A stretch of 63,523 nucleotides of DNA, filler included, from Nanobdellati archaeon (GTDB lineage Archaea > Nanobdellota > Nanobdellia > Woesearchaeales > JAADFO01), in assembly GCA_013152815.1 (NCBI GenBank). It is 5 parts of 5 records of this genome, joined end to end, with 100 filler letters (N's around TTAATTAATTAA, not from the genome) between each part and the next. Parts side by side here need not be neighbours in the genome. Positions count along the whole stretch, not along the records: positions 11,513 to 33,662 come from JAADFO010000004.1; 4 more parts are not named here. One strand, given 5' to 3'. Position numbers: made by a program. Position 1 is the stretch's first letter. Every line of letters starts with the position of its first letter. Shown in pieces: positions 21,001-24,000 of the stretch.

Positions 21001-24000
21001 AAGAATCAAGACTCCTACATGTTGTTGAGCATCTCTGGCGCCAAGAACGCGAAAGCGTTTCCGAGCATGTTCAAATTCGGGCCGACCACTTTGTAAGTGA
21101 ACGCCAGCGCCCGGATTGCTTTGCTGCCAGAAAGCTTGCTTTCTGGGCATGAACCGGGATACACAGAAAACCAGTTACAGATTCTGTGCCAAACAGTATC
21201 GCTAGCTGACCGGTCCGAAGGCGGGTTTTCTGGTACCAAAAAAACGCCAACGCCCGGATTTGAACCGGGATATCCCGAAGGAAAGCGGTTTTCGAGACCG
21301 CCGCAATACCGGATTATGCGACGTTGGCGTGGTTTTTTTGCGTTTTTTTGTGTATCCCGAAGGAAAGCGGTTGTTTCTGACAAGAGACCTCAGAAATTGA
21401 GGAATTCTTGCCGTTCGAGACCGCCGCAGTACCGGATTGTGCCACGCTGGCATGAAGCGAAGCGGATGAGTACGTCAGCATGAAAAACTGGGGGCTGCGG
21501 AGATTCCCACCAAAGGGATGCACCCTTTTGAAACCCGCGCACAATGCAGCAGGATTTCCNNNNNNNNNNNNNNGATTCCCACCAAAGGGATGCACCCTTT
21601 TGAAACCCGCGCACAATGCAGCAGGATTTCCAATCCTGCAAATGGGGCTGCGGAGATTCGAACTCCGGTCAGGTGGCCCCGAACCGCCTATGATACCAAG
21701 CTACACTACAGCCCCGGAAGGGGCAGATGAGCTGGGTTTCCTTTAAGAATGTTTCTATGTTGCAGGTGTCTCCCGGGACGTCAGGAAAGCCTTGGTGCGA
21801 TGATCCTGCCGAGCTGTCGGCCTTTCATCTCCAGCTGCTTCTTGCTCTGCTGGAAGAGCCTTATTTCGGTCCGAAAGATCAGGTTTGCATCCACCTTCGT
21901 GAGATGGGCCTCTGCATAGTCGAGAAGACCATGGGCAGTGGAAAAAGGCGGGGCAAGGGCCACGAATCCAACGCATTTTCCCTTGAACGGATTAAGCTCA
22001 AGAAAGGTGTTCATGGCAGGGGGGAAGAAGGCGCCCCAGACGGTCGTGACCACGATGAGTGAACCATACTTCTTGAAATCATAGCGGGGCACTTTCAGCT
22101 GTGTCCTTCTCCTTCGCAGGTTGGAGACAGAAGTATGCATGACACGTGAGGAGAAGCCGACCCGGAACGTATTGATGGACAGGACCCGTTCAGGCGAGGA
22201 AGCCTCGACCCGGAAGAGATCTGCATCAAGAGCATGTGCTATGCCTCTGGCTACTGCCTCGCTCTTGCCGGTCAGAGAATAATAGATAACTAATATCTTC
22301 AATAAAGGTCCCTCCTGAAAGAGGAGTATCATCAAAGTTTAAAAATTTTCCGAAAGAAAGGGCTCTGGAGAAAGAATGGCCGGCATCCTTCGCGATGCTT
22401 CATCCAGTGCAGGGGCAAGAGAGTTCCCGGAGTTGGCCCAAAAAGTCAGATCTGCTGTCTGACCGCTTCTGCTGCCTTGGACGCTTCTGCAGGGTCCCCG
22501 AGATAATGATGTTTGAGCGGCCTGAGGGTCTCGTCAAGCTCATAGACGAGGGGGATTCCTGTGGGGATGTTCAGCCGGGGGATGTCCTCGTCAGAGATAT
22601 TGTCCAGGTGCTTGACCAGTGCCCGGAGAGAGTTCCCATGGGCGACGATGATGACCTTCCTGCCTTGCTGGAGCGACGGAGCGATGACTTCGTTCCAGTA
22701 GGGGATCACCCGATGGACCGTGTCCTTCAACGACTCGGTGAGGGGAAGATCCTTCTCTTCAACATCCTCATAGAGCGTGTCCTTCCCAGGGTAACGGGGA
22801 TCATCCTTTGTCAGCGGAGGAGGAGGGACATCGTAGCTTCTGCGCCAGAGGAAGACCTGGTCTTCTCCGACCTCTTTCACCAGCTCTTTCTTGGACCTTC
22901 CCTGGAGGGCGCCGTAGTGACGTTCGTTGAGACGCCATTCCTCGAAGATGCCGATGCTGCTGAGACCGAGTTCTTCGAGGACTATGGAGAGCGTATCCTT
23001 GGCACGGGAGAGAACAGAGGTATAGGCCAGGTCGAAGATGTATCCTGCCTCTTTGAGGAGATTGCCTGCCTTCTTGGCTTCCTCCCTGCCTTTCTCAGAG
23101 AGCGGAACATCGGTCCAGCCGGTGAACTTCCCTTCTTTGTTCCATGTGCTCTCTCCGTGACGGAGAAGGACAAGCTGTATCATAGGGATGAAGGAATCTC
23201 TGAGCTATAAAAAGTTAGTGCTTCTTTTGTATCCTGACCAGGAAGTAGAGGGCTACAAAGGCCATGAGTGCAGAGAGGATCTGGCCTTCGCTCAACCCAA
23301 AGACGCGAGGGTCCTCCCGATAGAAGGTGACGAAGAACCGCAGCACGCCATAGGCGAGGACAAAGGTCCAGAACAGGATCCCTTCCTTGAGACGTCTCTT
23401 GGCGTAGAGATACCAGAGCATGAAAAAGATGAACAGGTTCTTGCCTGCCTCATAGAGCTGGGAAGGATGACGGCAGCCCTCGACCCCTTTGTACTGGATG
23501 CACCAGGAGACAGTGGTGGGCGTCCCGATCAGCTCGCCGTTGATGAAGTTCGCGATCCTGCCGAAGAACAGGCCGAGAGCGGTGGGTATGACCAGCACGT
23601 CGGCTATGGCATAGAATTTCACATCGTATTTTCGGGTGAAGAGCCACAGGACCAGCATCAGCCCCAGCAAGGCCCCATGGAACGACATGCCGCCTTCCCA
23701 GACCCGAAAGAGTGCGAGCGGATCATTGACGAGACGTGTGCGCGCATAGAAGAGGAAATAGCCAAGACGGCCGCCGAGGATAAGGCCGCCGGCCAGATAG
23801 AGTATGAGGACATCGAGAAGCTCCTGGGTGAGGTTCGCTATCCGCCCTTTCTTGACCAGATGGTTCAGGAAACCATAGGCGAAGAGCAGGCCAAGGGCAT
23901 AGACAAGACCGTAGTACCGTATCTCCAGAGGACCGAGATGCAGGAGAACAGGGTCGAGATTGTAGACAAACATGACTTCCGGAAGAGGAGCCGATATAAA

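Follow-up and report, generated by a model that had tools for sequence, protein, structure and literature searches.

A predicted bacterial-type Lgt–LspA lipoprotein line, with a Lit-family protein, in a Woesearchaeales archaeon and its order

Introduction

The Lgt of Escherichia coli can also use PS and PA, though less efficiently, as lipid donors. Its Y26 and R143 contact the acyl-chain oxygens of the donor, and the mutants E243A, E243Q and E243R do not complement (PMC4728403). For Lit, residue roles, including those of the catalytic histidines H85 and H153, have been described (PMC8275575). Homologues of Lgt and Lsp are said to be lacking in archaea (PMC6098224; Hong 2025, PMC12462473), and Hong 2025 asks what lipidates lipoproteins where AliA/AliB are missing (PMC12462473). 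Its supplement gives AliA as 0 in its 7 Woesearchaeota and, in the part consulted, 12–60 predicted lipoproteins in six of the seven (PMC12462473).

The presence of the gene families in this lineage is already known from published supplementary tables, and the enzymes are of known kinds. Castelle 2021 (Table S3, Woesearchaeota module 15) lists LGT in 83%, Peptidase_A8 in 83% and DUF1461/PF07314 in 71% of 196, the third family being labelled DUF1461, not Lit (PMC8204110). In Huang 2021 (Supplementary Data 4), lgt is OG0000180 (PMC8421398). An earlier note on this DNA held that the genes overturn the literature, which is too strong in view of these tables. The word "lipoprotein" is absent from the main texts of both papers, and the passages of them that were searched hold no link to AliA or to lipid type (PMC8204110, PMC8421398). 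Our literature search, which covered few subscription journals, found no published discussion of Lgt or LspA in these archaea. What this analysis adds is the exclusion of AliA and the case for ester lipids; we did not find the interpretation in print.

Results

The window, the whole stretch of 63,523 nucleotides that was analysed, carries a 252-amino-acid open reading frame on the minus strand (23215..23973) that is predicted from profile scores, residues and fold to encode prolipoprotein diacylglyceryl transferase (lgt). The protein is full length and at equivalog level, as the earlier note had claimed: TIGR00544 gives 171.1 (cut-off 118.9), PF01790 gives 224.8 bits over positions 1–239 of 240, and the E. 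coli structure 5AZB is matched with E 8.2e-37. The structure model (pLDDT 95.1) has a TMq of 0.78 to 5AZB, the sole Foldseek match at E ≤ 0.001. No second Lgt was found in the genome.

The residues Y26, H103, R143, N146, E151, G154, E202, Y235, R239 and R246 (E. coli numbers) are retained. Y26 and R143 are invariant in the alignment, and R143 and R239, which with H103 count as catalytic, are kept in 31/31 top-scoring loci; such counts, here and for LspA and Lit below, come from the 30 loci that score highest in each family and are biased towards conservation. The motifs had been reported as kept, which is true of the signature residues N146, E151 and G154; the correction concerns position 243, where Thr stands in place of the Glu of the head-domain hydrogen-bond network. 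Glu occupies this position in 77/77 non-Bacillota bacterial rows, in 40 of 44 loci of the order picked by Pfam score, and in 21 of the 119 closest homologues; the remaining 98 have another residue, with acidic residues near by. Thr243 lowers the certainty that the chemistry is identical; we treat it as a variant of the subclade inside the family.

Directly downstream of lgt (31 bases, same strand) is gpmA (22446..23183, minus strand), which is an incidental neighbour since it lies beside none of 30 other lgt loci. With opposite-strand shadow ORFs set aside, no family recurs at more than 4 of the 30. An lgt–lspA–lit operon was rejected, the genes sitting on three contigs here; lgt adjoins lit in G014. 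An ArsR-type HTH gene (27819..28190, plus strand) marks the lgt contig as archaeal, its nearest Atlas clusters being 88–100% archaeal. A YqeG-like HAD phosphatase of the PGP-phosphatase family (16635..17216, minus strand; PF09419 49.5 bits; TIGR01668 85.2, cut-off 89.1) possibly serves a lipid head-group step.

A candidate substrate in the window is a 315-amino-acid protein (15607..16554, plus strand) with a lipobox signal peptide followed by HEAT repeats (Pfam HEAT_2), found in the lipobox scan (C4:4074-5042 frame). Over the genome, a home-made rule, stricter than the one used earlier and applied in place of SignalP, gave 18 matches among 1273 self-called genes, 17 of them credible and one probably a transporter helix. 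Lipobox proteins are thus present, at a lower count than the roughly 24 first claimed. The lipobox Cys is enriched over control residues (15.4 versus 0.6–5.8, frequency-scaled).

The predicted signal peptidase II gene, lspA, lies on another contig (C53:10748-11275, minus strand) and likewise stands at equivalog level, as had been stated (TIGR00077 114.2, cut-off 73.95; PF01252 111.2), with matches to 5DIR (E 1.8e-17) and 6RYO (E 1.9e-16). Its catalytic aspartates D124 and D143 occur in 31/31 top-scoring loci. The archaeal neighbours claimed for these genes were found again: eIF-1A is two genes away from lspA here and within 1.5 kb of it at 15/30 loci. One and the same gene lies upstream at 26/30 loci; searches with it matched only unnamed Woesearchaeota clusters and assigned no function.

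The Lit-family gene (C24:10235-10885, plus strand) matches PF07314 with 101.4 over positions 3–176 of 176. It is full length as described, and the equivalog level also claimed for it does not hold, the scores being below both NCBIfam cut-offs (TIGR01906, 72.5 versus 74.8; NF051877 (Lit), 37.3 versus 400). The residues H85, D88, V89, F145, F149, H153, F157, N159 and W162 are retained, with H85, H153, F157 and V89 in 29/29 top-scoring loci. The structure model gives a TMq of 0.80 to 7B0P and of 0.72–0.80 over 7B0O–7B0R. At E ≤ 1e-25 the only relatives are itself and one other. On Pfam, residues and modelled fold, we file the protein as a member of the family, not as a proven Lit. Lnt was not found in the five checked (0/5).

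Profile searches over 121 Woesearchaeales genomes agree with the order-wide spread reported earlier. Lgt is present in 112, LspA in 111 and Lit in 94; Lgt and LspA occur together in 104 and all three in 82. All four single-contig genomes of the sample (G016, G025, G085, G097) have Lgt and LspA, and Lit is missing from some complete or near-complete genomes, for example G025 and G017. The presence of AliA, a point that the earlier note had left open, was checked with DUF63, whose labels occur in the Hong 2025 AliA alignment: it was found in 0/121 genomes of the order, while three euryarchaeal controls gave matches. A same-class AliA query gave no phmmer match in this genome. A class-wide draw, confined to one class of DPANN, gave Lgt in 111/121, AliA in 3/121 and both in none. 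Lgt most likely replaced AliA, because AliA occurs solely in Lgt-negative genomes. Among genomes tested outside the order, LspA and Lit are present in 3/3 Lgt-positive genomes and in 0/2 AliA-positive ones. Fisher tests on gene presence count kin genomes as independent and were given no weight. The Lit family, at 94/121 in the order, occurs in only 1/10 Lgt-bearing control bacteria. In Aenigmarchaeota, Castelle 2021 (Table S3) gives it as 19%, against 5% for Lgt and 0% for LspA (PMC8204110), so the family can exist without a lipoprotein line.

The order name is taken from the earlier note and is supported by the named top matches, which are mostly labelled "Candidatus Woesearchaeota/Nanoarchaeota archaeon". 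In the tree, no archaeal Lgt nests inside the 76-row cluster of Proteobacteria, Nitrospirota and Desulfobacterota. One representative near the bacterial cluster is from Peregrinibacteria, and the tree work, in which two long rows (L239, L240) were removed, does not identify the bacterial donor lineage. A single origin of archaeal Lgt is unsupported (2 changes on the tree; AU p = 0.381, from 57/136 rows with few, long-branched outgroups). Two contigs titled Methanosarcinales (L136, L177) group 100% with Woesearchaeota sequence and have archaeal neighbours; we treat these titles as unreliable and claim no second archaeal group.

The ether-lipid synthase GGGPS was found in 0/121 genomes of the order at E ≤ 1e-10, and the G1PDH family in 4/121 at E ≤ 1e-20. 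Other lipid genes are patchy: CarS in 60, PlsC in 57, GpsA in 31 and Cfa in 11 of the 121. CarS, PlsC and GpsA are all absent from 32 genomes, 26 of which still have Lgt and LspA. The ten regions fetched for tandem PlsC all hold a plsC–plsC–gpsA cassette (rps2 alongside in nine), and nine of these ten genomes have CarS. In relatives, CarS is grouped with PlsC, PgsA-like and UgtP-like genes. Characterised CarS prefers archaeal DGGGP and did not complement cdsA (PMC9385802). The present genome (90.8% complete) has CarS, PssA, Psd and Cfa and gave no match to PlsC, PlsY, GpsA, PgsA, GGGPS or UbiA. PssA and Psd have good scores on archaeal models as well, under those models' cut-offs. Cfa, the cyclopropane fatty-acyl phospholipid synthase, which acts on fatty-acyl chains, is at equivalog level (442, cut-off 400) on the lspA contig.

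Discussion

A resident, intact Lgt–LspA(–Lit) line is well supported, and it is very probable that Lgt and LspA work as a line. The best explanation as a whole, to which we give a probability of about 60%, is an ancient acquisition of the bacterial lipoprotein line by Woesearchaeales and certain sister orders, in which it now takes the place of AliA, the ancestral lipidase of archaea; the direction of change, from AliA to Lgt, we infer. Lgt would put a diradylglyceryl group from an anionic phospholipid on the lipobox Cys of a Sec-exported precursor, LspA would remove the signal peptide and, in most members, Lit would shift the sn-2 acyl chain onto the newly exposed amino group, so that lyso-form lipoproteins result. 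Since the Lit reaction requires an ester and the order is without GGGPS, a fatty-acyl ester phospholipid is the most likely donor; an ester donor together with an active Lit is probable, less firmly so than the line itself. The ester lipids that the earlier note predicted gain independent support from the Lit catalytic histidines, Cfa, the plsC–plsC–gpsA cassette in ten relatives and the lack of GGGPS; against them count the Lit scores, Thr243 and the CarS preference for archaeal lipid, and their place in the membrane is what we infer. Minority lineages could make their own ester lipid through acyl-CoA dehydrogenase/Etf, PlsC–PlsC, GpsA, CarS and PgsA. Others, this genome included, may obtain lipid from bacteria, whether hosts or prey, and exchange its head group. 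In this genome the set of CarS, PssA, Psd and Cfa suggests PS/PE with cyclopropane chains, and the donor may be PS, PA or imported PG.

The strongest competitor, which we nonetheless regard as unlikely, has Lgt and LspA working with an archaeal ether lipid obtained from the host (archaetidylglycerol or -serine), so that the proteins carry archaeol anchors as with AliA; CarS, PssA and Psd would exchange the head groups of archaeal lipid, and Lit would be idle or have another role. Retention of CarS in half the sample (60/121), DGGGP-selective in tested archaea (PMC9385802), and the archaeal-model scores of PssA and Psd fit this, as do the altered E243 of the subclade, the Aenigmarchaeota Lit family largely without Lgt (PMC8204110) and, in the part of the literature consulted, the lipid exchange described between N. 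equitans and its archaeal host. It has to contend with a complete Lit catalytic set and fold, the co-occurrence of Lit with Lgt and LspA, the substrate of Cfa, the company that CarS keeps in relatives (PlsC, PgsA-like, UgtP-like), and the invariance of Y26 and R143, the residues that contact the donor's acyl-chain oxygens in E. coli (PMC4728403); a replacement of AliA would also be hard to explain with an unchanged lipid. Less probable again is a donor that differs by lineage or host, a relaxed Lgt (the E243T/N/D subclade) using any anionic lipid, ester or ether, and Lit acting on ester only. The patchiness of CarS, PlsC, GpsA and Cfa, the lack of Lit in G025 and G017, and the E243 change throughout the subclade suit such a scheme, but no direct sign of ether-lipid use was seen and AliA was not found even as a back-up (0/121).

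That this Lgt copy or its subclade is weakened or re-purposed seems very improbable: position 243 is intolerant in E. coli (PMC4728403), but this is the only Lgt found in the genome, the ten other checked residues are retained, non-Glu residues with acidic ones near by are common to close homologues, and candidate substrates, LspA and Lit are all in the genome. A binning artefact or recently acquired bacterial DNA was ruled out by closed genomes, synteny and GC3, and we give it a negligible probability. In its favour, the assembly is a MAG in 76 contigs, the genes next to lgt (gpmA, thyA and dhfr) are no archaeal markers, and one close match (P0050) is labelled Bacteroidota. On the other side, Lgt and LspA each occur, mostly in a single copy, in more than 90% of the genomes of the order, closed ones included, archaeal genes (Pth2, eIF-1A, RLI, archaeal HTH) lie in the neighbourhood, GC3 is 0.66–0.72 where the genome averages 0.69 ± 0.07, and lspA synteny is conserved.

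Beyond the favoured account of a bacterial line with an ester donor, we offer tentatively, as doubtful, that the whole order crossed the lipid divide, giving up AliA and ether-lipid synthesis for membranes of fatty-acyl esters and lyso-lipoproteins of bacterial type. A hybrid route (acyl-CoA dehydrogenase/Etf with SDR, PlsC–PlsC, GpsA, and archaeal CarS now serving as a CDP-diacylglycerol synthase) would supply some lineages, and bacterial hosts would supply the others. If so, the presence of Lgt or of AliA in a Nanobdellota genome would mark the host as bacterial or archaeal, respectively. The Lgt line offers a concrete answer to the question of Hong 2025 for the Woesearchaeota in its tables, and two hard questions about an uncultured lineage, its membrane make-up and whether its hosts are bacterial, become testable by expression in E. 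coli.

Compared with E. coli Lgt (5AZB/5AZC; PF01790; TIGR00544; Mao 2016, PMC4728403), the protein shares the equivalog score, fold, signature motif and the residues Y26, H103, R143, N146, E151, G154, R239 and R246; it differs in its archaeal host, Thr243, a shorter head loop, an lspA that is not adjacent and a genome in which no PgsA was found. Like the bacterial enzymes (5DIR, 6RYO, 9EMZ; TIGR00077), LspA scores at equivalog level and has the GN-x-x-DR motif and its two catalytic Asp; unlike them, it has a fixed place next to archaeal eIF-1A and an uncharacterised gene specific to Woesearchaeota. The Lit-family protein has the nine listed residues and the fold of Bacillus cereus Lit (7B0O–7B0R; PF07314; Olatunji 2021, PMC8275575), at 18–21% identity and with scores below TIGR01906 and NF051877. 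Archaeal AliA/AliB (arCOG02177/02178, DUF63; Hong 2025, PMC12462473) have the same predicted job, thioether lipidation of the lipobox Cys, but belong to another protein family and use an archaeol donor, and AliA and Lgt never share a genome among the 121 of the class.

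Sequence and structure of the three proteins

The lgt ORF (window 23215-23973, minus strand, 252 amino acids) is located on contig C4 (window 11513-33662) of a 1.49-Mb genome in 76 contigs (completeness 90.8%, contamination 0.74%). In profile searches its product covers 239 of the 240 positions of PF01790 (224.8 bits) and scores 171.1 against TIGR00544, above the cut-off of 118.9; lspA (C53:10748-11275, minus strand) reaches 114.2 against TIGR00077 (cut-off 73.95). Both are thus equivalog-level, as the earlier note had it, and Lgt is full-length. The same rank, also claimed for the Lit-family gene (C24:10235-10885, plus strand; Pfam 101.4 bits), does not hold, as its product falls below the cut-offs of TIGR01906 (72.5 versus 74.8) and NF051877 (37.3 versus 400). 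E. coli Lgt is the sole sequence relative of Lgt in the PDB, and a structure model built with an 80-row alignment (pLDDT 95.1) has a single Foldseek match at E ≤ 0.001, 5AZB (TMq 0.78). For the Lit-family protein, whose model has pLDDT 97.3, B. cereus Lit is the only structural match (TMq 0.72–0.80).

Lgt residues Y26, H103, R143, N146, E151, G154 and R239 (E. coli numbering) show no variation in the 119 closest homologues, 44 loci of the order (Woesearchaeales) and seven loci from other orders. For LspA and Lit, residues were counted in this genome and in the 30 loci with the highest scores in each family, a choice biased towards conserved sequences: the two LspA aspartates are retained in 31/31, and Lit H85, H153, V89 and F157 (roles from the relevant part of PMC8275575) in 29/29, one locus having been missed and a duplicate of this genome's copy removed. 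A home-made lipobox rule applied to 1273 self-called genes gave 18 matches, 17 of them credible, with a frequency-scaled value of 15.4 for Cys against 0.6–5.8 at eleven other residues. One match (15607-16554) lies in the window. Candidate substrates are present, by this stricter rule in lower number than the roughly 24 first proposed.

Genomic setting and distribution

The three genes are resident in an archaeal genome. Archaeal eIF-1A and Pth2 lie two and three genes from lspA, RLI is near lit, and the lgt contig carries an HTH gene whose nearest Atlas clusters are 88–100% archaeal; gpmA, the direct neighbour of lgt, is no archaeal marker. At 0.66, 0.71 and 0.72, the GC3 values of lgt, lspA and lit are in line with the genome (0.69 ± 0.07).

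Across 121 genomes of the order, the counts are 112 for Lgt, 111 for LspA and 94 for Lit (86, 86 and 77 of the 92 high-quality genomes); 82/121 have all three and every genome has at least one. The sample includes one unpublished genome (G112), which shifts some tallies by one; no claim depends on it. A second draw (completeness at least 85) found Lgt in 90 of 93 order genomes and, beyond the order, in 21 of 28 genomes of the same class. Of 30 lspA loci, 26 share a conserved upstream gene and 15 have eIF-1A no more than 1.5 kb away; here the upstream gene (L001, the lspA contig, 11287-11772, minus strand, 161 amino acids) directly precedes lspA and hits only unnamed Woesearchaeota clusters in the Atlas. 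Some genomes (G014, G050, G082, G101, G130 and others) have extra divergent Lgt paralogues (2–5 matches), and Lit sits inside 486-residue open frames, possible fusions, in G069 and G101.

In a 136-row Lgt tree no archaeal sequence is nested inside a 76-row Proteobacteria/Nitrospirota/Desulfobacterota cluster (support 97). Archaeal sequences branch as a grade, placed between this cluster and four long outgroups. A single archaeal clade is neither rejected nor demonstrated (p-AU 0.381, 57 of the 136 rows). The acquisition by archaea is ancient. Two loci titled Methanosarcinales (L136, L177) and a protein titled Bacteroidota (P0050) fall inside the Woesearchaeota group and are probably mislabelled.

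Other window genes include a stand-alone phosphatidylglycerol lysyltransferase C-terminal domain lacking the membrane domain (14619-15494, minus strand; PF09924, 119 bits), a squalene/phytoene synthase family gene (13447-14547, plus strand) and thyA followed by two DHFR-family genes (25851-27822, plus strand). A low-GC block near tRNA-Ser and tRNA-Pro (17273-20945, minus strand) encodes a 742-residue protein with a C-terminal 4Fe-4S motif, a radical SAM protein and a GreA/B C-terminal-like protein. Directly after lit (L002, 11249-15847) lies what we take to be a heptose/LPS-core-like cluster of cytidylyltransferase, HAD phosphatase, sugar kinase, isomerase and glycosyltransferase genes.

Absence of AliA

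The presence of AliA, a point raised in the earlier note, was checked: DUF63 was found in 0/121 order genomes, with positive controls in M. jannaschii, H. volcanii and M. acetivorans. In a class-wide draw AliA occurred in 3/121 genomes, one match being weak, and all three were among the ten Lgt-negative genomes. In the five genomes outside the order that were searched for them, LspA and Lit accompany Lgt in 3/3 Lgt-positive genomes and occur in 0/2 AliA-positive ones, small numbers from related genomes. The Hong 2025 supplement (PMC12462473), whose alignment file carries DUF63 labels, agrees, with AliA at zero for 7/7 Woesearchaeota; of these, the six examined have 12–60 predicted lipoproteins each, and a passage of its discussion holds that such genomes imply an undiscovered pathway. 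Judged from gene content, AliA has most likely been replaced by Lgt in the order.

Lipid genes

Searches for ether-lipid synthesis did not find it: GGGPS was found in 0/121 order genomes at E ≤ 1e-10 (one weak partial match at 1e-5, G023), and the G1PDH family in 4/121 at E ≤ 1e-20. Searches of this genome (90.8% complete) for PlsC, PlsY, GpsA, PgsA, UbiA and Lnt gave zero matches. It has carS adjoining pssA (L095:138-1283, minus strand; PssA 127.6 versus 107, TIGR00473) and a psd (L326:2658-3329, plus strand), next to a radical SAM family also found near lipid genes of relatives. The lspA contig carries a cyclopropane fatty-acyl phospholipid synthase, Cfa (L001:13891-15009, plus strand; 442 versus an equivalog cut-off of 400).

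Order-wide, CarS is present in 60 of 121, the PlsC family in 57, GpsA in 31 and Cfa in 11; CarS, PlsC and GpsA co-occur in 17, and 32 have none of these, 26 of which retain Lgt and LspA. In ten genomes picked for tandem PlsC, possibly one clade, plsC-plsC-gpsA is found in 10/10, adjoining rps2 in nine and preceded by acyl-CoA dehydrogenase-etfB-etfA in seven; NHxxxxD is retained in 23 of 25 PlsC proteins. The longer form, sometimes led by an SDR gene and often near radA, was seen at L273, L274, L277 and L281–L284 (G103 C2, G119 C1, G075 C10, G023 C138, G050 C10, G038 C19 and G009 C14), with shorter versions at L275, L276 and L278. This cassette is a candidate CoA-based path to phosphatidic acid in an archaeon. 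CarS is present in nine of the ten genomes, in three of them clustered with PlsC and PgsA-like, UgtP-like or patatin genes. Its clusters at L270 (G038 C21), L271 (G050 C15), L272 (G009 C7) and L285 (G103 C2), with PHP, PlsC, PgsA/PssA, UgtP-like glycosyltransferase, patatin, Psd and radical SAM partners, suggest re-use of CarS on acyl lipids.

Discussion

We propose that Lgt would transfer diacylglyceryl from an anionic ester phospholipid to the lipobox Cys, that LspA would then cut the lipidated precursor, and that Lit would move the sn-2 chain to the amine, with a probability of roughly 0.6 for the joint scheme. E. coli Lgt also accepts PS and PA, though less well, in keeping with the PssA and the lack of a PgsA match here; PG taken up from outside would be just as likely. 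Hints of bacterial-type lipids are in print, in sections of papers on GpsA and PlsC in DPANN (PMC6431249), on Cfa and Fab genes (PMC10936187) and on a proposal that Woesearchaeia modify lipids of a bacterial host (PMC11868695). An ether-lipid donor, with some other activity for Lit, is unlikely. Two observations count against ester lipids: tested CarS preferred DGGGP and did not rescue cdsA (part of PMC9385802), and 19% of Aenigmarchaeota have the Lit family, with Lgt at 5% and LspA at 0% (Castelle 2021 Table S3, PMC8204110). A donor that differs by host, in keeping with the patchy lipid genes, is less likely still.

A weakened Lgt copy is very improbable. The exception among its conserved residues is E243, a Thr here, and E. 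coli E243A/Q/R did not complement (part of PMC4728403); yet Thr, Asn, Asp or Ser stands at this position in most of the nearest homologues (98/119), while Glu is kept in 40/44 order loci and 77/77 non-Bacillota bacteria. The change looks tolerated across the subclade and may shift donor choice. An artefact is next to inconceivable, with the genes resident and recurring across the order.

The earlier note expected to overturn the view that archaea lack Lgt and Lsp. Homologues are indeed stated as not known in passages of Hong 2025 (PMC12462473) and of a 2018 review (PMC6098224), but the families are already tabulated: Castelle 2021 Table S3 (PMC8204110), which places all three in module 15, gives frequencies among 196 Woesearchaeota of 83% for LGT, 83% for Peptidase_A8 and 71% for DUF1461/PF07314, and Huang 2021 (PMC8421398) Supplementary Data 4 lists lgt. 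In term searches of the available main texts, Castelle 2021 lacks lipoprotein, Lgt, LspA and their family identifiers, and Huang 2021 lacks lipoprotein; searches of the 2026 Nanobdellota preprint (main text) and the available text of PMC13473441, PMC13631571 and PMC7414124 found no statement on archaeal Lgt. As far as found, the trait is tabulated and no paper interprets it. The Lgt/LspA/Lit line is a real, lineage-defining trait built of known enzymes; with its exclusion of AliA and its ester-lipid gene context, it opens both the membrane of Woesearchaeales and their hosts to testing.
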